From: a virus
Taxonomy: Duplodnaviria > Caudoviricetes
DNA length: 24,914 nt
IMG/VR virus record: IMGVR_UViG_3300038427_000102
Coordinates: 1 to 24,914 of that record
Strand: one strand, 5' to 3'
The position numbers and the translations under genes are program-made. Of the stretch, positions 5,037 through 24,914 are shown one piece after another. The notes under the pieces are model-generated. The model ran no database searches, had not been told where the DNA came from, and worked only from the letters and a program-made list of their open reading frames with translations. The stretch's first letter is position 1; every line of letters begins with the position of its first letter.

Positions 5037-5612
5037 ATGATAGTTTATTTGATTACCAATAAAGTGAATGGAAAGCAGTATGTAGGTCAAACTACAAAAA
5101 CTGTAGAAAAGAGATGGGAAAAGCATCTAGAAAATGCAGATTTAGGTATTAAGTTTCTAATCTACAAATCCATAAGAAAGTATGGTGCAGAAAACTTTTC
5201 TCGTGTCATACTTCACGAATGTGAAACCAAAGAAGAGATGGATTTCGTGGAGATGTTCTACATTGCACTACTGAGTACCAAAGCACCAAATGGGCACAAC
5301 TTAACAGACGGTGGAGAAGGCCAATTTGGACGTAGACTTTCAGAAAAAGCTATACAAAAAATGAGAGATGCGTTTACGGGGAAACCAAACCCTAAGAATT
5401 CCGAGCATCTTAAGAAGAACCCAAGACCAAGAAACCCTGTAAATGGCAGATTGTTAAGCGACAACGAAATAGCCACAGGAAATTGGGACACTACACCGGC
5501 AAAAGCCTCTGAAGAGACTCGTCTAAAGATGAGTAAAGCACATGAGGGTTTTAGACATACAGAGGAATCAAAAGCCAAGATGAGAGGAAAACGTGGCCCA
5601 AGAAAAAGGTAA
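5037..5612 (+). CDS. GIY-YIG homing endonuclease with NUMOD3-like C-terminal repeats
   Basis: IVYLITNKVNGKQYVGQT...RWEKH...E..YI...NLTDGGEG; repeats SEETRLKMSKAHEG and HTEESKAKMRG. Confidence 0.9.
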   Translation: MIVYLITNKVNGKQYVGQTTKTVEKRWEKHLENADLGIKFLIYKSIRKYGAENFSRVILHECETKEEMDFVEMFYIALLSTKAPNGHNLTDGGEGQFGRRLSEKAIQKMRDAFTGKPNPKNSEHLKKNPRPRNPVNGRLLSDNEIATGNWDTTPAKASEETRLKMSKAHEGFRHTEESKAKMRGKRGPRKR

Positions 5613-6225
5613 GAAATTGGTTTGTCTCGTACAAAGGCATGGAAGTACAATTTTGAATGAAAGTAATTCCTTCCGTGCGCGAATGGACCCTCCCTTAGAT
5701 GAACAAGGAGAGCAACAAGCTCAGGATGCTGCAGAAAATCTAAGGAACGAAGGGATAAGCCCGGAACGTATAGTCTCCTCTCCTATGCTCAGGGCAGTGC
5801 AAACAGCAGATGCATTTGCAGAAGAATTTGGGTTAGATGTAGAGCAAGATAGGGCTCTTATAAGTTGGAATCTTGGATTTCTTTCGGGAAAAGACAGAGA
5901 CGATTACGGACCAATTCTTGAACTTTATGTGGACAATCCAAAGTTGACCATTCCTGATGGAGAGCCTTTAGTGGATTTAGAAGACCGCACATTTGAATAC
6001 TTTGACAAAGAATTGAAGAAAGATAAATTGACGGTTTTCATAAGTCACAATTCCAACATTGTAACATTAGAATCTTTAATCGCTGGAGACAAAGTAGGAA
6101 GACCAGAATCCTCAGAGACATCAGTGCAGCCGGGAGGTACTATGGCTGTCTATGTAGATGATTCAGGAAAATATACCACAGAGGTTCTTTTTGGCTCAGA
6201 GAAGAAAGCAGAACTGAGTAGTTAG
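5593..6225 (+). CDS. histidine phosphatase (phosphoglycerate mutase-like) family protein
   Basis: Catalytic RHG motif (QRHGST), SSPMLRAVQTA and late VFISH motif; GTG start after GAGGA. Confidence 0.85.
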   Translation: MAQEKGKKLVCLVQRHGSTILNESNSFRARMDPPLDEQGEQQAQDAAENLRNEGISPERIVSSPMLRAVQTADAFAEEFGLDVEQDRALISWNLGFLSGKDRDDYGPILELYVDNPKLTIPDGEPLVDLEDRTFEYFDKELKKDKLTVFISHNSNIVTLESLIAGDKVGRPESSETSVQPGGTMAVYVDDSGKYTTEVLFGSEKKAELSS

Positions 6226-7912: not shown

Positions 7913-7985
7913 TACAGGACTTATAACCCTGTACTAGAGTTGGGAGGTGCACGAACACCTCCCTGCTCAACCTTTTCGTGGAGGA
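7913..7985 (+). promoter_or_regulatory. hairpin + pseudoknot leader motif, copy C (upstream of GIY-YIG gene)
   Basis: TACAGG-acttataac-CCTGTA; GGGAGGTG-cacgaa-CACCTCCC; loop CACGAA (7950-7955) is complementary to TTCGTG (7975-7980), which abuts SD GGAGGA. Confidence 0.75.
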
Positions 7986-7989
7986 ATCA

Positions 7990-8580
7990 ATGTTTGGAAT
8001 AATTTACAGAATTACCAATGCCGAAACAGGTATGGAATACGTAGGACAAACCGTGCAATCCCTTAGAGAACGCTGGGTAGAGCACATGTCTCATGCTCGG
8101 CAAGTAAAAAGCCAATCCTATATGTCTCGGGCTCTTAGGAAGTACCCGATTGAAGCATTCGTTGTAGAGTCGATTCACGAGTGTGAATCCCAAGAAGAAC
8201 TGGATTTTGTAGAAACCTTCTACATTTCCCTACTCAACACTAAGGCTCCCAATGGGTACAATTTAGCAGACGGCGGTGGAGGAGTTTCTGGGTGGCAGAA
8301 TGGCAAAGGAAATGTGCCCACCGAAGAGACGAGAAAAAGACTCAGTGAGGCTGGAAAAGGCAACACAAATGCCTTGGGTAAAAAGTATTCAAAAGAGTTT
8401 TGTGAAAAGATTAGCGTAGCCTTGAGTAAACGGGTGCGCAAGGAAGAATCGTATAACACTCCGAAATGTCTAGAGAAAAGAAAGAACTATAGACATGGGA
8501 AGGAAGCAAGGGCCGCTATTAGCGCAGGGCTTAAGGGAAAACCTTGGTCTGAAACAAGGCGCGCGGCACAAAGAGTTTAG
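7990..8580 (+). CDS. GIY-YIG homing endonuclease (paralogue of 5037..5612)
   Basis: GIIYRITNAETGMEYVGQT...RWVEH; HECESQEELDFVETFYISLLNTKAPNGYNLADGG is close to the 5037 gene. ATG 7990 follows SD GGAGGA. Confidence 0.9.
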   Translation: MFGIIYRITNAETGMEYVGQTVQSLRERWVEHMSHARQVKSQSYMSRALRKYPIEAFVVESIHECESQEELDFVETFYISLLNTKAPNGYNLADGGGGVSGWQNGKGNVPTEETRKRLSEAGKGNTNALGKKYSKEFCEKISVALSKRVRKEESYNTPKCLEKRKNYRHGKEARAAISAGLKGKPWSETRRAAQRV

Positions 8581-8735: not shown

Positions 8736-11700
8736 ATGGCACTATTAGAGGCTTAACAACAGTGGGCCTCATTAAATTCAACCTGATTGACTCGAACGCT
8801 GAAATGCCAACGAGGGCGAACCTGCAAAGGACGCTGAGAGACTAAGCGGTTGAACTCCTACGGGAAGATGCAATAGTCCGAACTCACAGGAACACAACTG
8901 TGAGAGGTTAGCAGAAATGACTAACCCGTACGTAATACGTAACAACATGGCTGTTGAAGCAGTCGAACTAGACGCTACCCAATAGCAAAGGCGTCTACAA
9001 TTCCTTATTGAAAAAAGTTTGCTAAGGAAATCCCTAAACAAAATTGGGGATTAAAAACCCACTCTGATTGACTTGAAACCTGAAACGGCAACAAGGGGCA
9101 AGCGAAAGCAGCCTGAGAGACTAAGCGAGAGGGGCGTCCACAAGACGCATGCGATAGTCCGTTCTCATGGGAACAACAACCATGAGAGGTTGACGGAAAC
9201 GATCAACCCAGAACACAGTAACAAGTAAGGATTTGGTTTTCCATGGCACAACCGCCTATAGCCTTTTCAAGGCAGAAGCAACATCTATCCCCGTGTCCAA
9301 CCAGTCAAACGCTGGTGGCACCGTCCGTGCATCATTCCGTGTGCCTTTCCGTGTGCAGTCCGGCGCGGCAATCTCACAAGGAACTGGTAACGCTGACGCT
9401 ATGGGCCGTGGCACTGGCTCGCAGTGGGCATCGTTCGCGCTGGCACCCGTTTATCTGTTCAACGTGTAAATTTCATGCGCGTTTAAAAGTTGTCCGTATC
9501 GGTGAAACCCTAGCATTTCATGAGGTAAATATGAGTGTAGAAAATACCGAGGTAAGAAGTCAGAGTTTATCAGAGTTGCAAATTGGATACCTCGCAGGAA
9601 TCATGGACGGAGAGGGATCAATCACTTTCGTGTACCATAAGTGCAAGACGAATGTGAATGTTCTGTATTCTCCTGTCGTGTATATATGCGCGGTGGCAAA
9701 CTCCAATCCACTGATAATCCAAGCTGTCGAATCTCTTTTGAAGAACCTTCCTATTAGGTACAAAGTGTACTCACCTAAGCAGGAATGGAACAAGAAAGCA
9801 AAGAAGAAACCGTACGCCATTCATTTGATGGGTATGAATTCTGCTAAGCATTTCTTAAACGTCATCTGTAAGCACCTCAATGGCAAGAGGCAGCAAGCGG
9901 AGTTGGTACTTGAGTATCTGGAACGCAGAGAAGAAGGTCAACGAGTAAAATTCATGACGGAGAGAGATTGGCAAATCATCCACACTGTTCGAAATATGAA
10001 CAGGAATTATGGTGCTGACTTTACCGTAGAGACTAAACGACAACCTTCGCTAACGGGCGAAGAAGTTATAGTCCGAACTGTATAGTGATGTACAGAGGGA
10101 GCAGAAATGCACTCCCCGAATGTCATTACTTATTTTTAAGTGATTACATTTAGTAACAATTTGGTGAAATCTCGTGGTTAGCTCAGGCTTCCACGGATAG
10201 CAAGCAGAAGGGTCTTTTTGCCGTTAAGTCCAAAGCTTTGGCGGCTGTTGCAGGCAAATAAAAGCAACAAAAATTCGCTATATCGGGGAACCTCTGGTAT
10301 ACTATGATTAGTAAATCAGACAATCCCGAGGGAAGATAGTAATGACAAAACAGTCGAAGTTTTCGTACCTAGCAGGTTTCATGGATGGGGAAGGTTCCTT
10401 CTCTATCGTCAAAACCTTCTCTGTTCAAAGAAAACGGGACGGAAGTAAGCAGAAATACGTAACCTACAAATGTATGGTTTCAGTCACCAACACACACAAA
10501 GGTGTTATGGACTGGATCGCCAAGACTTTTGGTGGAAAAGTTCTCACGGGCAACAATGAGAACAGAAACCCCAAGTACAAGACTAGGTATTCGTGGTTCA
10601 GAACGAGCCACGAGGACATTGAAAAATTTACGTTAGGAATTCTGCCTTACCTCATTGTTAAAAAGGAACAGGCACTAGTGACTTTAGAGTTCTGCAAAAC
10701 GTATCAAGCAGAGCGTATAGGCACAGCCCTGAACCCAGAAGTGCAAGTTAAGAGAGATGAATTGAGGAAGAAAATGATGTCCCTTAATGGAGTTTACTCT
10801 GGCGCTTCTACTAGACCCGTAGAGACTACACGCGAGACCCCTCAAATAGAGGGTGATGATATAGTCCGAACTGCATAGTGATATGCAGAGGGTTGGCAGA
10901 AATGCCCAACTTTTGTCAGAAGAATGTACACAAACTTCTTTCAAATAACAAATTGTAAAGCACAGGAAATGAAGAACTCTCTCGACGCCGCAATGCAGGG
11001 CATAGAAGGGCTCATCAACTCAGACGGGTCTGGTAAACAAACAATCTGCCTGACCTTATAAACATGTAGAGAATTCGGTGAAAACCCTTAGGGGCAATAC
11101 CGAGCCGCTCCTCGTATCTGGGGAAGGTGTAACGACTATCCCGAAAGGGAGTAGGGAACAGTGTTCCCGAAGCACTACAACCTTTATGAAAAACTCAAAT
11201 GAAATACTCTGGTCGTATCTGGCTGGGCTGTTCGATGGTGAAGGCACCGTCTGCATAAGCACCAGTCACAACCGAAACAATACAGCTATTTTCCAGATGA
11301 ATGTGAAAGTGGCTAACACTAAGTTGGAACTGATGCAGTGGCTGATTAAAAACTTCGGCGGGTTTTACTCGGTGAGTCAAGCTAAATGCGAAGGAAATAA
11401 TAGAGCTACTCAATATGCGTGGATGCCTAAAGGCAAGAACAATCGAATAGAGGTTCTAGAAAAAATGCTGCCATACTTGGTTATAAAAAAGCAGCAGGCT
11501 CTTATTGGTTTGGACTTTGAAAGAGTGTATGAAGGACGAAACGGATGTCAGCCGGGACTAAAACTGACAACCGACAGTCCTATCTACGTTGAAGCCCACG
11601 CAAAGAGGCTAGAATTAAGAGATCAGCTCGTAAAGCTGAATCGTAAAGGTAAGATATAGTCTGAACTCATAGGCAACTATGAGAGTGTGCGCGGAAACGG

Positions 11701-12811
11701 CGCATGCGTAACAGTATTGATGATTGACCAGATCCCCGCCACAGCAACCTTCGGTACAGGTACTGGTGCACAGACGGCCAGCATTGTTGGCATGAACGTC
11801 GCAGTGGCGTTCAGCGATCAGCAAGTGGTTTCGTTCTACACCGTTGGTGGCGTGAAGCGTGTCGGTGGTGGATACACATCGGCAACGATCTCGTACGTTG
11901 ACGGCCCTTCGAACACCCTGTGGTTCAGCACCCCGCTCCCGACCGATCTCGCAGTCACCGACTACGTGGTTGTGAACGGTGCAACATACGGAACTGGCGC
12001 GTCCGTCCTCGGCATCAAAGCTTGGGATGTGAACTCCAACTCCGGTACCATCGCGGGCTTGAACCGCGCGTCTTACCCCGGGCGTCTGAGCACACCGACG
12101 ATTAACCTCAACGGCGCTGCGATTACACCGGGCATCGCACAGCGTGCAGAAGTCTTGTTGGGACGCGCACTCGGACCCGATGCAGACTCTATCAAGAGCG
12201 GCATCTGGTACGGCCCGCCTGAGCAAGCTTTCGCACAAAGCAACTTGATGTACAACGTTCAGATCGTGAACGCACAGGAAGTCAAGGGCGACAAGACGAT
12301 GGACATGGCCCGCAAGTATTTCAGTGATACTTTCGGCGGCAGGAAATATCACAAGTCTTGGACGGCGATCAACAACCGTATGGACTTGCTTGTACTAGAC
12401 AACTGGTACATTGGGGAATTGTCTCCCCTTGAGCTGTATGATTTCGGTGGTGGCAACGTCGTTGCTCCCGTGCCGGACATCAGTTCAACCACTGGTACCG
12501 CGAGTTACTTGACCTCGCACATGTTCGCATATAACACCTGCTTTTCCACAAAGGTTGGAGCAGTATAAACCCCATCTGATTGACTCGAACGCTGAAATGC
12601 CAACGAGGGCGAACCCGAAAGGGACGCTGAGAGACTAAGCGATAGGGCACCGAAAGGTGATGCAATAGTCCGAACTATACGGGAACAATAACCGTATGAG
12701 TGCAACAGAAATGATTGCACCACGCATAGCGTGTAACAAATATGTAACCTTGCGAACGCGGCTCCGCGCGCCGGTCTATACATCCAAAACGCGGCAGTTC
12801 CCACTATCTGA
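8736..12811 (+). CDS. major capsid protein, split into 8 exons: 8736-8753, 8950-8976, 9018-9035, 9230-9467, 10164-10224, 10956-11034, 11720-12543, 12745-12811 (443 aa spliced)
   Basis: AAGGA RBS then ATG 8736. Joining at U/G boundaries predicted independently by P1 and P10 pairings gives 1332 nt with no internal stop: MALLEA|AVEAVELDA|FAKEIP|DLVFHGTTAYSLFK...YLFNVC(split)EISWLAQASTDSKQKGLFAV(split)KAQEMKNSLDAAMQGIEGLINSDGSG|MIDQIP...AYNTCF(split)NLANAAPRAGLYIQNAAVPTI*. Position after the scaffold-like gene, size, the DGSG motif and the NL...P..G..I.N C-terminus fit an HK97-fold coat protein. Confidence 0.85.
8754..8949 (+). ncRNA. group I intron 1 (196 nt, ORF-less)
   Basis: P1 GAGGCU/GGCCUC with U.G; P10 CAACAGU/GCUGUUG; P3 UUCAACC/GGUUGAA; P7 elements GAGACUA (8838-8844) and AUAGUCC (8873-8879); P9 hairpins; terminal G8949. 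Confidence 0.92.
8977..9017 (+). ncRNA. 41-nt core-less group-I-like mini-intron (intron 2)
   Basis: P1 UAGACGCU (8969-8976)/GGCGUCUA (8990-8997) ending in U.G; P10 UAGCAAA (8983-8989)/UUUGCUA (9018-9024); terminal G9017. Contains an in-frame TAG and shifts frame; no P3-P8. Confidence 0.8.
9036..9229 (+). ncRNA. group I intron 3 (194 nt, ORF-less)
   Basis: P1 AAUCCCU/GGGGAUU with U.G; P10 AAACAAAAUU/GAUUUGGUUU (1 mismatch); GAGACUA (9117-9123), AUAGUCC (9154-9160); terminal G9229. Confidence 0.92.
9468..10163 (+). mobile_element. group I intron 4 (696 nt) carrying a LAGLIDADG endonuclease
   Basis: P1 AACGUGU/GCGCGUU; P10 AUUUCAU/GUGAAAU; P3 GUUGUC (9489-9494)/GACAAC (10039-10044); GAGACUA (10029-10035), AUAGUCC (10068-10074); terminal G10163. 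Confidence 0.9.
9531..10085 (+). CDS. intron-encoded single-motif LAGLIDADG homing endonuclease
   Basis: GYLAGIMDGEGSI motif and HLNGKRQQAELV; GAGGT RBS before ATG 9531. Confidence 0.9.
   Translation: MSVENTEVRSQSLSELQIGYLAGIMDGEGSITFVYHKCKTNVNVLYSPVVYICAVANSNPLIIQAVESLLKNLPIRYKVYSPKQEWNKKAKKKPYAIHLMGMNSAKHFLNVICKHLNGKRQQAELVLEYLERREEGQRVKFMTERDWQIIHTVRNMNRNYGADFTVETKRQPSLTGEEVIVRTV
10225..10955 (+). mobile_element. group I intron 5 (731 nt) carrying a LAGLIDADG endonuclease
   Basis: P1 GCCGU/GCGGC; P10 GCUUUG/UAAAGC; P2 UGUUGC/GCAACA; GAGACUA (10822-10828), AUAGUCC (10861-10867); terminal G10955. Confidence 0.9.
10342..10878 (+). CDS. intron-encoded single-motif LAGLIDADG homing endonuclease
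   Basis: SYLAGFMDGEGSF motif; FGG; ILPYLIVKKEQA (I-CreI-like). Confidence 0.92.
   Translation: MTKQSKFSYLAGFMDGEGSFSIVKTFSVQRKRDGSKQKYVTYKCMVSVTNTHKGVMDWIAKTFGGKVLTGNNENRNPKYKTRYSWFRTSHEDIEKFTLGILPYLIVKKEQALVTLEFCKTYQAERIGTALNPEVQVKRDELRKKMMSLNGVYSGASTRPVETTRETPQIEGDDIVRTA
11035..11719 (+). mobile_element. group I intron 6 (685 nt, IA-like with P7.1/P7.2) carrying a LAGLIDADG endonuclease
   Basis: P1 GGGUCUGGU/GCCUGACCU; AACGACUA (11131-11138) followed by hairpins UCCC-gaaa-GGGA and GGGAAC/GUUCCC; AAGAUAUAGUCU (11651-11662); terminal G11719 (G11722 is a one-codon alternative). Confidence 0.88.
11186..11659 (+). CDS. intron-encoded single-motif LAGLIDADG homing endonuclease
   Basis: SYLAGLFDGEGTV motif; NFGG; MLPYLVIKKQQA. 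ATG 11186 is preferred over the track start 11078, which lies in the ribozyme core. Confidence 0.9.
   Translation: MKNSNEILWSYLAGLFDGEGTVCISTSHNRNNTAIFQMNVKVANTKLELMQWLIKNFGGFYSVSQAKCEGNNRATQYAWMPKGKNNRIEVLEKMLPYLVIKKQQALIGLDFERVYEGRNGCQPGLKLTTDSPIYVEAHAKRLELRDQLVKLNRKGKI
12544..12744 (+). ncRNA. group I intron 7 (201 nt, ORF-less, core nearly identical to intron 1)
   Basis: P1 CUGCUU/GAGCAG with U.G; P10 AAGGUUG/UAACCUU; GAGACUA (12631-12637), AUAGUCC (12665-12671); terminal G12744. Confidence 0.92.
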
Positions 12812-12985: not shown

Positions 12986-13540
12986 ATGCCATACAAAAAC
13001 AAAGCAGATGCCAACGCTGCAGCACGTAGACGTTGGAAAGAAAACCCAGAAGCACGAAGGAAGCAAAAATCTGCTACACAAAAGTGGCAGGATGATAACA
13101 AAGAGCGCTGGAATGATTACAGAAACAAATGGATGAAGACTGACAGGGACGAAAACATAGAAGTTCGTAGAGCTTATGAATTCGCCCGAGAGATGAAGAA
13201 GTACGGAAAATCTATAGAGTGGTACAGGGACAAGCTCGTTGAGCAGCTTGGAGTCTGCGCAATGTGCGGGCATTTCAATCACTCTCAGCGTGGAGAACTG
13301 CATAGATTGCAGGTTGACCACGATCACGGATGTTGCGACAAAAGAACCCATAGTTGTGGTGAGTGTGTCAGGGGGCTTATTTGTGAGAAGTGTAACCTGA
13401 GGCTTGCCCCAATTGAACTTCTGCTTTCCGAGTTCCCCTTCGAGAGACAGGATCAAGCGGAGATTTACCTAAGAAATTCAGTGCGTCAAGACTCATGGAC
13501 GTACCGAGCACTAAAATACCTCAAGCAGTACACCGCCTAA
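12986..13540 (+). CDS. endonuclease VII-like (His-Me) homing endonuclease
   Basis: QLGVCAMCG...LQVDHDH...VRGLICEKCN signature; basic helical N-terminus. Confidence 0.88.
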   Translation: MPYKNKADANAAARRRWKENPEARRKQKSATQKWQDDNKERWNDYRNKWMKTDRDENIEVRRAYEFAREMKKYGKSIEWYRDKLVEQLGVCAMCGHFNHSQRGELHRLQVDHDHGCCDKRTHSCGECVRGLICEKCNLRLAPIELLLSEFPFERQDQAEIYLRNSVRQDSWTYRALKYLKQYTA

Positions 13541-16364: not shown

Positions 16365-16973
16365 TTGCCGTATAAAGACCCAGCGAAACAGGCAGAAAGC
16401 CAAAGACGCAGATATTGGGCTAACCCAGAACAGAGCAGAGAACGCGGTAGAAAGTATACAAAACTCTACGGAGAAAGACATCCAGAAAAGTTGAAAGAAG
16501 CAGCATTAAAGCGCTCACCTATAGAAATAAAAGAGACTCAGGCAAGGTGGCGTGAAAGAAACAAAGAAAGAAAGAGTGCACAAGTTGCAAAGTGGAAGAT
16601 AGACAATCCTGACAAAGTTAGGGCACTTTACCATAAGCGTAGAGCACAGAAGACTCAGGCTGGTGGCTTTTTCACCTCTGAAGAATGGTTCCTTTTGTGT
16701 TTTGCTGTGGGATTCAGGTGCTTGTGCTGCGGTTTGAAAAAGCCTTTAGAAGCAGACCATGTGGTCCCAATTTCTAAAGGTGGAACAAGTTGGCTGTGGA
16801 ACATTCAGCCGCTGTGCGAATCCTGTAACACTAAAAAGCACTGCCAGATCATAGATTACAGAGACTCAGAGCAGAACTCAGTTGGCGCTAATGCGCCGGA
16901 AAAGGAAATAAAAAATCTATGGAGCCTACCCTTACCTCGCCAGTACATCGCTCAGACCTTAGCGAAAGCATGA
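16365..16973 (+). CDS. HNH homing endonuclease (paralogue of 1796..2284)
   Basis: EEWFLLCFAVGFRCLCCG...LEADHVVPISKGGTSWLWNIQPLCESCN; AGGAGG RBS, TTG start. Confidence 0.9.
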   Translation: MPYKDPAKQAESQRRRYWANPEQSRERGRKYTKLYGERHPEKLKEAALKRSPIEIKETQARWRERNKERKSAQVAKWKIDNPDKVRALYHKRRAQKTQAGGFFTSEEWFLLCFAVGFRCLCCGLKKPLEADHVVPISKGGTSWLWNIQPLCESCNTKKHCQIIDYRDSEQNSVGANAPEKEIKNLWSLPLPRQYIAQTLAKA

Positions 16974-21215: not shown

Positions 21216-21416
21216 ATGTGGGATAAAATATTATCAGCGGCTAAGGATTACCACTTGCCTATCGCTGTGTTCGTCTTCATAGTAGGTTCAGTGATGCAGT
21301 GGTTTCATCACCTCGACGCAGCATACGTGGCGTACACAGCAACAGTGCTTGGGGCTGTAACTGGGCATGCATTCAGTCCGGCGCAGCAGGACAAATCTGA
21401 CGGTACAAGCAAGTGA
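21216..21416 (+). CDS. small membrane protein, holin-like
   Basis: 66 aa, GGGAGG RBS, two hydrophobic helices, polar charged tail. Confidence 0.5.
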   Translation: MWDKILSAAKDYHLPIAVFVFIVGSVMQWFHHLDAAYVAYTATVLGAVTGHAFSPAQQDKSDGTSK

Positions 21417-22129
21417 GACGCCTAGAAAGGCATAGGAAACCCGAGGTTGCCCTTCCTCCCGGCAATGCTGCAACGATAATTATACCTAGCAAATACCCGG
21501 ATATCTTCGAAGGGTGCAGAAGCAGCCTTGAGCAGTATGCTCCGCAGGCACCCAAGATTCTGGTGCGTGACGGGGACGCCATAGGGAACCCTAAGGGCTG
21601 GACGGTCATTCAAGGGGTTTCTCCCTTCATTTACGCTAGAAACTGTAATATAGGTATACAGGCATGTTCTGACGATATATTACTTTGCAACGATGATGTG
21701 AGATTTCTTCATACTGGAACGTTGTATACTTTGCAGAGCCTTTTCGTCACCCACCCACACGTAGGCATTCTCTCCCCCAGCGTGGACGGCGTAGCAAACG
21801 GTGTTTCATGCTCGGGGCAAGCTGTGCATGAGACCAAGCATTATCTCAGCTTCGTCTGTGTCCTAATTCGGCGCGCGCTGATCGACAAGATCGGACTTCT
21901 GGACGAGAAATTCACTTTTTATGGGGGAGAAGACGTGGATTACTGCCGCAGAGCACAGCGTGCGGGCTTTACGCTCGCGGTTACGTCGCTGGTGACGGTC
22001 GCACATAAGCATGCTAGTTCTTCATACACCAGAGAGCATGCGCTAGAGTTGAAAAGAGAAGCAGCAAACAGGTATTATGTTGAGAAATGGGGCCGTAGAA
22101 CGCCCGGGCATTATGCAGATGAAGTTTGA
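21413..22129 (+). CDS. glycosyltransferase family 2
   Basis: TIIIPS, YARNCNIGI, ILLCNDDV, IGLLDEKF..YGGEDVDYCRRA motifs. Confidence 0.88.
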   Translation: MRRLERHRKPEVALPPGNAATIIIPSKYPDIFEGCRSSLEQYAPQAPKILVRDGDAIGNPKGWTVIQGVSPFIYARNCNIGIQACSDDILLCNDDVRFLHTGTLYTLQSLFVTHPHVGILSPSVDGVANGVSCSGQAVHETKHYLSFVCVLIRRALIDKIGLLDEKFTFYGGEDVDYCRRAQRAGFTLAVTSLVTVAHKHASSSYTREHALELKREAANRYYVEKWGRRTPGHYADEV

Positions 22130-22134
22130 AACAT

Positions 22135-22205
22135 CTCAAGACCTCGAATCTTGAGCTAGGGCTGGGAGCAGCCTTCACTGCTCCCTTCCCGTCCTTGAAG
22201 GAGGA
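22135..22205 (+). promoter_or_regulatory. hairpin + pseudoknot leader motif, copy E (upstream of HNH gene)
   Basis: CTCAAGA-cctcgaa-TCTTGAG (same loop as copy A); GGGAGCAG-ccttca-CTGCTCCC (same stem as copy D); loop CCTTCA (22172-22177) is complementary to TGAAGG (22196-22201), which overlaps SD GGAGGA. Confidence 0.75.
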
Positions 22206-22208
22206 TTT

Positions 22209-22763
22209 ATGTCGGAATCGTCACGTAGGTGGAGAGAAAAATATCCAGAGAGAGCAAGAGAATCGGCGTGTAAGAGCAGACTTAAACGAAGACAAAAAGA
22301 CCCAGAAGGGGTACGTGAATACAGCAACAATTGGAATGCTTCCCATCCAGAAAAAGCACGTGAGAGAGCTAGAGTATGGAATAAAGAGAATCCAGAAAAA
22401 GTACGTGAAAAGACTAGAAAATGGCGTAAGGAAAACCCGGAAAAGGTAAAGGCCCAAAAGAATAAACGTCGCTCATTCGAATTGGGAGGTGAAGGAGCTT
22501 TCACTGCACAAGAGTGGACAGCTCTTAAAATCTCCACGGGAAATATGTGCCTTTGTTGTAAGCGTACAGAGCAGGTGCTAGTCTCTTTGGGATTAAAATT
22601 GGTACCAGACCATGTTGTTGCGTTGATACACGGAGGTTCTGGCGGCATCACAAACATTCAGCCACTGTGCCACGGTGTAGGTGGATGCAACAATAAAAAG
22701 TACACTAAGAACACAGACTACCGTGTTAATAAGGCTCAGGATAATCATGGAGACGAATCCTAA
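22209..22763 (+). CDS. HNH homing endonuclease
   Basis: W.KENPEKV repeats; FTAQEW...CLCC...PDHVVAL..GG...NIQPLC....GCNNKK. Confidence 0.88.
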   Translation: MSESSRRWREKYPERARESACKSRLKRRQKDPEGVREYSNNWNASHPEKARERARVWNKENPEKVREKTRKWRKENPEKVKAQKNKRRSFELGGEGAFTAQEWTALKISTGNMCLCCKRTEQVLVSLGLKLVPDHVVALIHGGSGGITNIQPLCHGVGGCNNKKYTKNTDYRVNKAQDNHGDES

Positions 22764-23463
22764 TATCGCCGTCGTTGTGGCTGTCAATAATGACAAGCAA
22801 TTCAGCGAGTATGTGCTGTCCTCCCCCGGCCTGAAGGAGATTGAGGTGCAGATCATCCCCGTACGCGGGGCAACATCTGGTGCCGAAGCATTCTACCGAG
22901 GTGTACAGCAGACAACGTGTCCGTGGATTTTATATTGCCATCAGGATGTATTTTTTCCTGAAGGTTCAGGACAGGCCATTGAGAAAATACTACCCAGCTT
23001 ATCCAAAGATACCATCTTGGGGTTTGCTGGAATGGTGGGAAAACTGAATTCTGACGATGTAAAGGGTGCTGGGATTGTGCAAAGTGGTCGTTCAGGGTTG
23101 ATAGACTTTCCAAGTAGGAGAACCGATGCTATCTCTCTCGATGAGTTTGCTATTGTTTTGAACAGGGAATGCAAGTATAAGATTGATCCCAAATTGGGAT
23201 GGCATTTGTGGGGTACTGATCTGTGCCTGCAGTCCGCAATAGATGGGTGCTCTGCCCGAGTAGAGAGAGTACTACTGACTCACTACTCTTCCCACGACTA
23301 CATTGGAGATGGCGGCTTACCCGCTGAATTCTTCGACAGCCAAAACGTCCTCATAGCAAAGTATCATCAACTCCACACAATTCACAGTCTGTGTGTAATG
23401 TGGCACAGGGAAGCGCCAGCACCGAAGCGTAGCCTAAGACGGCCACCTAGACTCGGGAGATAG
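22747..23463 (+). CDS. glycosyltransferase-like protein (GT-A fold)
   Basis: IAVVVAVN, ILYCHQDV, SLDE, WHLWGTDLCLQ motifs; AGGA RBS before ATG 22747. Confidence 0.75.
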   Translation: METNPNIAVVVAVNNDKQFSEYVLSSPGLKEIEVQIIPVRGATSGAEAFYRGVQQTTCPWILYCHQDVFFPEGSGQAIEKILPSLSKDTILGFAGMVGKLNSDDVKGAGIVQSGRSGLIDFPSRRTDAISLDEFAIVLNRECKYKIDPKLGWHLWGTDLCLQSAIDGCSARVERVLLTHYSSHDYIGDGGLPAEFFDSQNVLIAKYHQLHTIHSLCVMWHREAPAPKRSLRRPPRLGR

Positions 23464-23466
23464 GCT

Positions 23467-24234
23467 ATGAAAATCTTTATCTGCATTGGCAGTTGTCGAG
23501 CATACGCTTTGAAGGGAAGTCACCAAGCCATACGAGAAACGTATTTAGAAGACATCTCTAGCTTTCAGAACATTGATTACGTCTTCAGTATGGGAGACGG
23601 CACACCGACAGGTGAAGATGAGAGTGAGATGCTGGCAAGTCTAGATGTGGCAGGTTGCCATCCGTACTGGAAAGACCAAAAAGAAGCAGATGTGCATTAT
23701 GTACCTAAGTCTGACGAAGTTTTTATACCTATACCAGACAGGTATATTTATGGAGCATGGGGTACTAGGGAAAATCTACGACGGGCCCTGAAAAAGGACT
23801 ACGATTTTTATTTCATATGCCCTACCGATACCTACATTCAGATTGGTCGCTTCTTAAAGAGCGGATTTGAGGAATATGACTACGTGGGCAGACCGTGGCG
23901 TAATCCATGGAATAAATTTACATACGCTGGTGGAGGGTCTGGGTACTGTCTAAGCAAGAAATCCGCTCAGGTACTTGCAGACTCCAAGATCGACACTTAC
24001 TCTGAAGACCAATGGTCCGGCACGCACCTCGGAGAACATGGTATACTTCTACACGAAGACAGGCGCTACAGTGCTAGCCCACACATGGATAGATGTTGTG
24101 CTTCATCGGACAGAGACCCCCTGTTCCCGATGCACAGTAATGCACAGATTACTGCTCACCTCGCTGAAACTCCTGACATCTACAATGAACGATTGATGTA
24201 CTATGCCCATGACATTTGGAAGAGTGGAATCTAG
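23467..24234 (+). CDS. glycosyltransferase, Fringe/GT31-like
   Basis: YDFYFICPTDTYI, DYVG, YAGGGSGYCLSKK, EDQWSG motifs. Confidence 0.75.
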   Translation: MKIFICIGSCRAYALKGSHQAIRETYLEDISSFQNIDYVFSMGDGTPTGEDESEMLASLDVAGCHPYWKDQKEADVHYVPKSDEVFIPIPDRYIYGAWGTRENLRRALKKDYDFYFICPTDTYIQIGRFLKSGFEEYDYVGRPWRNPWNKFTYAGGGSGYCLSKKSAQVLADSKIDTYSEDQWSGTHLGEHGILLHEDRRYSASPHMDRCCASSDRDPLFPMHSNAQITAHLAETPDIYNERLMYYAHDIWKSGI

Positions 24235-24372
24235 ATGCAATATCTTATCAAGAAAGAGCCCCCATGGAAAACGCCTCTTCGATGGCGATGGGAGATAGAA
24301 AAGCGTGTTCTGCAGATTTTGGCAGCTATTGTGGTGCTCGGTTTGATGCTTGTTTTACTGGAGAAACTATGA
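24235..24372 (+). CDS. small membrane protein (45 aa)
   Basis: Not in track. MQYLIKKEPPWKTPLRWRWEIEKRVLQILAAIVVLGLMLVLLEKL*; abuts the upstream stop and overlaps the next ATG (ATGA). Confidence 0.55.
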   Translation: MQYLIKKEPPWKTPLRWRWEIEKRVLQILAAIVVLGLMLVLLEKL

Positions 24373-24557
24373 CAGCGCCCGAAAAAAGATGGATGCCGGG
24401 ATATCCAGTGGGATTTCACGAGGTCTCTTATCCCGACTGCCATGCACCATCTGAGAAAGTAGCGAAGATGTTGGATGAGGCTCGCAGGGAGTACCAAAAG
24501 GCTCAGGAGAAGACTCATGGAGGAACTGGCAAGGATGGCAAGGAAGCGCCTGCTTAA
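24369..24557 (+). CDS. small hypothetical protein
   Basis: GGAG RBS before ATG 24369; 3' part of track ORF 24216..24557. Confidence 0.55.
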   Translation: MTAPEKRWMPGYPVGFHEVSYPDCHAPSEKVAKMLDEARREYQKAQEKTHGGTGKDGKEAPA

Positions 24558-24914
24558 GATGCACTATGAGGCTGGTGTTGGACACATCGGTGGCAACCTG
24601 TCCGCTCTGGATGCTATACTTGTTCTGCATCACACAGTGATGCGTCCTGAGGATGTGTTCATTCTGTCCAAAGGGCACGCAGCCGGTGCGCTCTACACAA
24701 CGTTGTGGGCTGCTGGCAAGATTACCGAAAAAGAACTGCGTACGTTCCACAAGGACGGGACGTATCTGGCAGGACACCCAGTGATGGGTTGGTCTGACGA
24801 TATACCCTTCGCCACCGGAAGTCTGGGACATGGGTTGTCAGTTGCGGCGGGGATGGCCCTCGGCTATAAGCTGCAGGGCTTGGATCGTCACGTATACTGC
24901 CTCACCTCAGATGG
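24517..24914 (+). CDS. transketolase N-terminal (TPP-binding) subunit, partial (runs off window)
   Basis: Not in track. AGGAG RBS, ATG 24517; GHIGGNLS, FILSKGH, LAGHP, ATGSLGHGLSVAAGMALG, VYCLTSDG. Confidence 0.92.
   Translation, partial: MEELARMARKRLLKMHYEAGVGHIGGNLSALDAILVLHHTVMRPEDVFILSKGHAAGALYTTLWAAGKITEKELRTFHKDGTYLAGHPVMGWSDDIPFATGSLGHGLSVAAGMALGYKLQGLDRHVYCLTSD

Follow-up and report, generated by a model that had tools for sequence, protein, structure and literature searches.

A coreless mini-intron, probably served by the group I core of the next intron, in the multiply interrupted predicted capsid gene of a phage

The predicted major capsid gene of the phage DNA analysed here (the window, 24,914 nt in all) is interrupted by seven inserts, one of which, the 41-nt insert 2, carries the splice-site pairings of a group I intron and has no catalytic core. 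An insert without a core must be removed by something else. Comparison with related genes makes it fairly likely that such mini-introns are guide-only, non-autonomous satellite introns of 34-74 nt, of several origins and present in at least three phage genes, which are tethered beside the P1 of the next intron and copy its P9.0 code. One natural ribozyme would then carry out two ordered rounds of splicing, at two splice-site pairs, in one mRNA.

The capsid gene (8736-12811) consists of eight exons and seven inserts, the latter accounting for 2744 of its 4076 nt (Table 1). Insert lengths of 196, 41, 194, 696, 731, 685 and 201 nt were obtained with a spliced aligner, using 45 intron-free homologues as scoring reference. 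The arrangement is that of the original prediction, made from the sequence alone, down to the 2744 intronic nt and the first three exons of 18, 27 and 18 nt. The joined frame, likewise foreseen, contains 443 codons and a stop, the three codons that follow codons 100, 120 and 421 being split. Compared over its full length with the intron-free homologues P0001, P0002 and P0003, the Met at 11720 being omitted, it was 93.4, 93.7 and 92.8% identical, and the three micro-exons (exons 1-3) matched these proteins exactly. Exon 7 starts at 11720, and the Met encoded there is present in homologues. Gene callers see only fragments of this gene, as had been noted.

Table 1. Exons and inserts of the predicted capsid gene (positions in the window).
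Feature	Position	Strand	Description
Exon 1	8736..8753	+	18 nt, 6 codons; terminal U in intron-1 P1
Intron 1	8754..8949	+	Predicted compact ORF-less group I, 196 nt; P1 6 bp, P10 7 bp, core covariation
Exon 2	8950..8976	+	27 nt
Insert 2, coreless mini-intron	8977..9017	+	41 nt
Exon 3	9018..9035	+	18 nt
Intron 3	9036..9229	+	Predicted compact group I, 194 nt; putative partner core of the mini-intron
Exon 4	9230..9467	+	Intron-free homologues, spliced alignment
Intron 4	9468..10163	+	Predicted group I; LAGLIDADG-like ORF 9531-10085, PF14528 E=3e-4
Exon 5	10164..10224	+	61 nt
Intron 5	10225..10955	+	Predicted group I; LAGLIDADG ORF 10342-10878, PF00961 E=2e-6
Exon 6	10956..11034	+	79 nt
Intron 6	11035..11719	+	Predicted group I; LAGLIDADG ORF 11186-11659, PF00961 E=1e-4
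Exon 7	11720..12543	+	824 nt
Intron 7	12544..12744	+	Predicted compact ORF-less group I, 201 nt; P1 6 bp, P10 7 bp, core covariation
Exon 8	12745..12811	+	Includes stop codon

The predicted junction features were present throughout: each of the seven exons preceding an insert has a terminal U, each insert has a terminal G, and P1 and P10 pairings occur at each junction, some of them read by eye. P1 and P10 comprise 6 and 7 bp for insert 1, 8 and 7 for insert 2, 7 and 5 for insert 3, 9 and 7 for insert 4, and 6 and 7 for insert 7. Insert 5 has a P1 of 5 bp with an extension and a P10 of 6 bp (both by eye), and insert 6 has a P1 with 8 of 9 positions paired and a P10 of 5 bp offset by 2 nt, the P10 being read by eye. 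Intron 1 ends in ATG (8947-8949), in frame with exon 2, and no ribosome-binding motif was evident by eye 5' of it.

Among 57 related loci with full coverage (not de-duplicated), 16 had no insert, one had six and one, L001, had seven; L001 is the same phage as the window. G001 and L001 are one and the same 10.8-kb fragment, in which only the six cores of the capsid gene were detected. Across relatives, 23 insertion sites are used in the capsid gene, eight of them within 20 codons near the 3' end (codons 415-434), where some relatives carry a pair of full introns separated by about 20 nt and where minis were not seen. Seven inserts had been called extreme. This gene does have the highest count among the 57 loci, but intron-split capsid genes are already in print, and the seven-insert gene alone is a modest extreme of a known pattern.

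On the evidence of a structural model, the gene encodes an HK97-fold major capsid protein, because the AF2 model of the intron-free homologue P0001, 93% identical to the spliced product, matches phage capsids in both PDB and BFVD. This model reached a pLDDT of 77.9 and a pTM of 0.78 with 97 diverse alignment rows, a first set of 42 close homologues having given a pLDDT of only 39 and been discarded. All the PDB hits listed were capsids (best E 6.5e-9), and the top BFVD match was a major capsid protein (E 9e-20, TM 0.63). The proposed capsid identity was thus borne out on the homologue's model rather than on the spliced product itself. The capsid product had no match among PHROG, Pfam or PDB sequences and matched no known major capsid family; the single Atlas lead was PF17236, found in 10% of one cluster. 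Three genome matches were to an Acidobacteriaceae MAG (57%), a Terriglobales MAG (46%) and an Acidimicrobiales MAG (85%, partial, on a 19-kb contig). In the P0001 model, residues ~148-234 form a well-predicted, beta-rich inserted domain, which is the most variable part among homologues.

A group I reading of the inserts held for six of them, inserts 1 and 3-7, which have group I cores and likely splice themselves; it did not hold for insert 2. Both P7 strands are present in inserts 4-6, which encode LAGLIDADG-type proteins (Pfam). An Infernal scan with group I models, which had been suggested, gave weak matches of these three to RF00028 (33.9, 32.7 and 37.9 bits, E<=6e-5, that of intron 4 spanning 9902-10095), all below the gathering score of 50, and none for inserts 1, 3 and 7. 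The latter belong to a family of compact cores with a P3-P9 fold and a P3/P7 pseudoknot. In 23 such cores, 96.7% of cells were paired, as against 29-41% in slid controls; two-sided changes occurred in 19 of 28 pairs, scored on the same 23 sequences from which the structure was drawn, and the G-site pair was invariant. One partner intron of a mini-intron (L065:5254-5463) shows a double compensatory change inside P7.

Insert 2 (8977-9017) contains neither P7 strand and no P3-P9 core, an absence that the original prediction had missed. Its guide (8990-8997) forms an 8-bp P1 with the end of exon 2, including the U.G pair U8976.G8990; the preceding segment (8983-8989) forms a 7-bp P10 with exon 3, and the insert ends in G9017. 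A P1 of at least 8 bp together with a P10 of at least 7 bp was found in none of 200,000 shuffles of the insert. Its remaining parts are a tail (9002-9007) and an AA (9015-9016) just before the terminal G. Retention of insert 2 brings an in-frame stop three codons into the insert, and the residues encoded by exon 3 show little or no variation among 42 homologues; insert 2 must therefore be cut out exactly. It would act like a group I substrate and, with its core absent, is not classed as a group I intron.

The micro-exons had been expected to serve successively in P10 of one intron and P1 of the next, suggesting ordered or alternative splicing. Shared use did not stand up, because the two pairings occupy separate nucleotides in both exon 2 (8950-8956 in P10, 8969-8976 in P1) and exon 3 (9018-9024 and 9029-9035). 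All 18 nt of exon 3 are nevertheless engaged, in the P10 of the mini-intron, in a helix with its tail (9023-9028) and in the P1 of intron 3. An order of splicing is likely, for another reason, namely that insert 2 has no catalytic core. Functional alternative splicing was not supported, and functional exon skipping was rejected: besides the conservation of exon 3, cross-P10 pairings are weak (-0.7 to -1.5 kcal/mol, as against -7.2 and -9.1 for the cognate ones).

Similar mini-introns occur in relatives of the capsid gene. Codon sites 6.0, 15.0, 15.1 and 21.0 together carry 21 different minis, 34-49 nt long, in six combinations of site and partner, those at site 15.1 splitting a codon. All 21 keep P1 (7-12 bp) and P10 (5-8 bp), with compensatory changes; the mini of the window recurs unchanged in 14 loci, some of them from the same contig, and the 20 other variants carry compensatory changes. 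A census of 122 distinct 5' regions contained 88 without insert before codon 45, 6 with full introns only, 27 with a mini and one 20-nt call (L057/L146), which lacks P1 and P10 and was set aside as an alignment artefact. This census omits L030, L087 and L162, which begin inside the site-21 intron, L159, which is frameshifted, L277, and loci that do not cover codons 3-50, including L130/L181. Each of the 27 mini regions has a full intron as its following insert; this intron lies 18-83 nt downstream and occupies site 21.0, 33.2 or 38.0. No upstream intron is present in 18 of the 23 mini architectures, and an upstream intron was accordingly rejected as a required helper. The dependence is one-way, because the site-21 intron of L130 and L279 is not accompanied by a mini. 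Partner cores formed no single clade and showed no special feature in a tree of 73 compact cores, the resolution of which was poor.

Two features of the minis may be read as signatures of the downstream core. The P9.0 register was set from the data of 118 full introns. In 97 of these 118, N3, the third nucleotide following the P7 3' strand, pairs with the nucleotide preceding the terminal G (permuted mean 60.7, p=0.0005); the next position pairs in 63 of 118 (permuted 50.3, p=0.01). The base before the terminal G of the mini pairs with the P9.0 position of the partner in 27 of 29 pairs overall, and with N3 in 24 of the 25 capsid pairs, 16 of which are of one lineage, the exception being L065. 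The pair is U-A with site-21 partners, A-U with site-33/38 partners and C-G in L350. Minis of the site-21 pairs match both positions in 16/16, although in 11 of these pairs the partner's match to itself is limited to one position. The two pairs mismatched at the main position (L065 and L304) are paired at the second. In the window, where the P7 3' strand of intron 3 lies at 9155-9160, the AA of the mini matches the UU at 9162-9163 of intron 3 alone, the other five cores having AA.

The second feature is the tail helix, which in the window joins 9002-9007 to 9023-9028 with pair probabilities of 0.93-1.0 and abuts the P1 of intron 3. An abutting tail helix was better than those of shuffled tails (p<0.05) in 12 of the 21 capsid minis, and L020 and L051 differ in it by a compensatory change. 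The abutting helix was not significant in the other nine (e.g. L045, L090 and L276), in two of which an 8-bp helix forms at another place in the middle exon.

We also scanned for compact cores and applied a mini detector blind to P9.0 and the tail helix. It flagged 9 of 87 cores and 2 of 68 control positions; the nine comprise five known capsid minis, three new ones and one (L354) that was rejected as a terminator hairpin by eye. A further mini of 74 nt, in L317, was missed by the detector and found by eye. In L350 (~500-780), a 38-nt mini, a 23-nt exon and a core stand at the start of an HK97-type portal gene (PF04860), and the design is therefore not limited to capsid genes. A second non-capsid gene, for which sequence searches gave no name, carries minis in L304, L384 and L317; three mini sites there precede one core site, and each locus is uninterrupted at the sites of the others. 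Removal of the mini restores the frame in all four non-capsid cases. The tail helix abuts in all four (6-11 bp, p 0.001-0.023); at P9.0, three have a matching base and L304 has a mismatch. In L317 (~490-565), the 5' part of the mini continues the frame and ends in an 11-residue near-copy of the true C-terminus, so that unspliced RNA would still give a full-length protein.

Taken as they stand, these sequence patterns suggest that the mini is quite probably removed, while still attached, by the intron-3 core just downstream, before intron 3 splices itself. In the pre-mRNA, the P1 of the mini, the helix between tail and exon 3, and the P1 of intron 3 would stand in a row ahead of P3, an arrangement that may be likened to the P1-P2-P2.1 of classical group I introns. 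The intron-3 core would dock the P1 of the mini, and free guanosine would open the 8976/8977 bond. The terminal G of the mini would then enter the G site, aided by pairing of its AA with the UU of intron 3, its P10 would form with exon 3, and exon 2 would be joined to exon 3. Intron 3 would next dock its own P1 and splice normally. This model predicts a strict order, an RNA that loses intron 3 first being a dead end.

Two contigs from a peat metatranscriptome (X1) bear on this scheme. One, of 152 nt, contains the mini, exon 3 and core, and the other, of 274 nt, contains exons 2, 3 and 4 contiguously, with no intron; their depths are 4.7 and 5.8, in a library that may hold DNA. The end of exon 2 in the intron-free contig is an 8-bp complement of the guide in the other, and both have the same exon-3 variant, as deduced from mismatch counts against two references. 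None of the 122 regions has this combination of exon-2 and exon-3 letters, and 6 have the exon-3 variant by itself. The contigs give a hint of precursor and product of one relative, the alternatives being an intron-free sister phage or DNA carry-over. Runs X2 and X3 contained only short matches to introns of other organisms and to intron-free relatives.

Excision need not occur in cis. A released ribozyme, either excised intron 3 or another phage intron, might dock the P1 hairpin of the mini and remove it in trans, as engineered group I ribozymes do with other segments according to the accessible parts of two reports (PMC4094466, PMC2532722). The mini brings its own guide, and its P9.0 match would serve a released intron 3 too. 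We nevertheless regard this as unlikely: trans action has no need of adjacency, yet a core lies directly downstream in 27/27 mini regions, and a tail helix next to the P1 of a partner that had already left would serve no evident purpose. Removal of the mini by a protein of the host or phage (a nuclease with a ligase, or an intron maturase), with P1 and P10 as relics, is quite improbable. Three introns of the window do encode proteins of the LAGLIDADG family, which includes maturases (PMC8393795, in its accessible part). Relics would however hardly be kept in 21/21 minis with compensatory changes, the base before the terminal G tracks the RNA of the partner, and some loci, L065 among them, have a mini although all introns in the gene (~200-240 nt) are too small for ORFs.

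The conservation of exon 3 also bears on whether the mini, exon 3 and intron 3 form one composite intron removed in a single round, giving an in-frame capsid protein six residues shorter. Skipping exon 3 keeps the frame, this part of the capsid model has low pLDDT, and exon skipping is known for Twort orf142 (PMC10136302, accessible part), but we consider such an intron very improbable, given the invariant or nearly invariant exon-3 residues. In addition, the P10 of the mini fits exon 3 (-7.2 kcal/mol) and not exon 4 (-1.5), other pairs would skip 38-83 nt, several of them out of frame, and the intron-free X1 contig contains exon 3. Ribosomes might instead hop over insert 2, as in T4 gene 60, where translational bypass uses matched take-off and landing codons. 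The similar size and the stop three codons into the insert fit such hopping, which is scarcely credible here: the codons do not match (GCT at 8974-8976, AAG at 9015-9017), site-15.1 minis split a codon, and the terminal G, the U.G pair and P10 are conserved. All data come from metagenomic contigs, but we give next to no credence to an assembly error or a dead gene, since the same mini recurs in 14 loci (some from the same contig), 20 variants carry compensatory changes, and the exons are ~93% identical to intact homologues.

Because full introns are also found at sites 6.0 and 21.0, both used by minis, the likely origin of minis is the loss of the core by full introns situated next to another intron. 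The long versions of the site-21 partner encode a GIY-YIG endonuclease (2/2 tested), and GIY-YIG ORFs are present at the site of intron 3 in L005 and L015; since long site-21 partners encode such enzymes, co-conversion could spread the pair, and minis would likely travel with the homing endonuclease of the partner.

Elsewhere in the window, free-standing endonuclease genes lie among the head genes at 5037-5612, 7978-8580 and 12986-13540 (two GIY-YIG/NUMOD3, one endonuclease VII). The ORFs at 1796-2284, 16365-16973 and 22209-22763 look HNH-like by eye, from their motif. The head module also contains a histidine phosphatase family gene (5593-6225; PF00300, E 1e-24). Downstream of the capsid gene, 14087-14812 matches GroES/Cpn10 weakly (E 0.0016, short of the curated cut-off), and its product is possibly a capsid co-chaperonin. 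The window ends (21413-24912) in ORFs that are presumably glycosyltransferase-like and one presumably transketolase-N-like, judged by eye from their motifs.

If the proposed scheme is true, a natural group I core can cut out RNA that is not part of it, using a guide that the target provides, and nature would offer a parallel to the transition from self-splicing to assisted splicing. Essential phage genes seemingly broken by 35-75-nt inserts would then be intact; Rfam and gene callers miss such inserts here. The guide, tail helix and P9.0 match would also provide design rules for removing short inserts without a scar.

Most split phage genes are, according to the accessible part of PMC11878797, genes of DNA or nucleotide metabolism, or terminases. 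Multi-intron capsid genes are already known: accessible text describes the crAss-like Zeta major capsid gene as being in five fragments (PMC7886860) and that of Faustovirus E12 as having 13 exons, down to 13 bp, and five group I introns (PMC6247863). Twort orf142 has three introns and a skipped 23-nt exon (PMC10136302, accessible part). Like the gene studied here, Twort orf142, the crAss-like Zeta/Delta capsid genes and Bastillevirinae combine group I introns, some with endonuclease ORFs, with late structural genes and short exons (PMC10136302, PMC7886860, PMC11878797); the present gene has seven inserts, and the accessible parts of these papers describe no coreless or neighbour-dependent insert. 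Faustovirus E12 differs in being a eukaryotic giant virus with introns of 396-3256 bp, and the accessible part of its report mentions no mini-introns (PMC6247863). A search of the literature, covering main texts and few subscription journals, found no report of a natural coreless intron served by a neighbour, nor do the accessible parts of PMC12880540 and 10.1101/2023.02.21.529479 describe one; a guide-only intron coupled to its downstream neighbour thus had no counterpart found in print.

Closer parallels come from other systems, as portrayed in the accessible parts of the reports cited. The PaSSU introns of the fungal SSU rDNA of Phialophora, small degenerate group I introns of 56-81 nt, resemble the phage minis in keeping P1 and P10 and in having a middle that pairs with the 3' exon (PMC3160393). 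PaSSU introns reportedly retain P7 and splice themselves, whereas the capsid minis (34-49 nt), insert 2 included, have no P7 strands; minis, unlike PaSSU, always stand just upstream of a full core and mostly match its P9.0 strand. The tandem or ratchet complex introns of fungal mitochondria, cob-490 and cob-201 of Ophiostoma, likewise have adjacent group I modules, ordered removal and an 18-nt spacer exon, but each module of cob-490 is said to contain all splicing components, and none is described as coreless (PMC12308204, PMC8393795). In spliceozymes and trans-excision-splicing ribozymes, as proposed here for intron 3, a group I core removes another segment (PMC4094466, PMC2532722). Those ribozymes are artificial, act in trans and were engineered to recognise the splice sites; the phage case is natural, the target brings the guide, and the core would act in cis before splicing itself.
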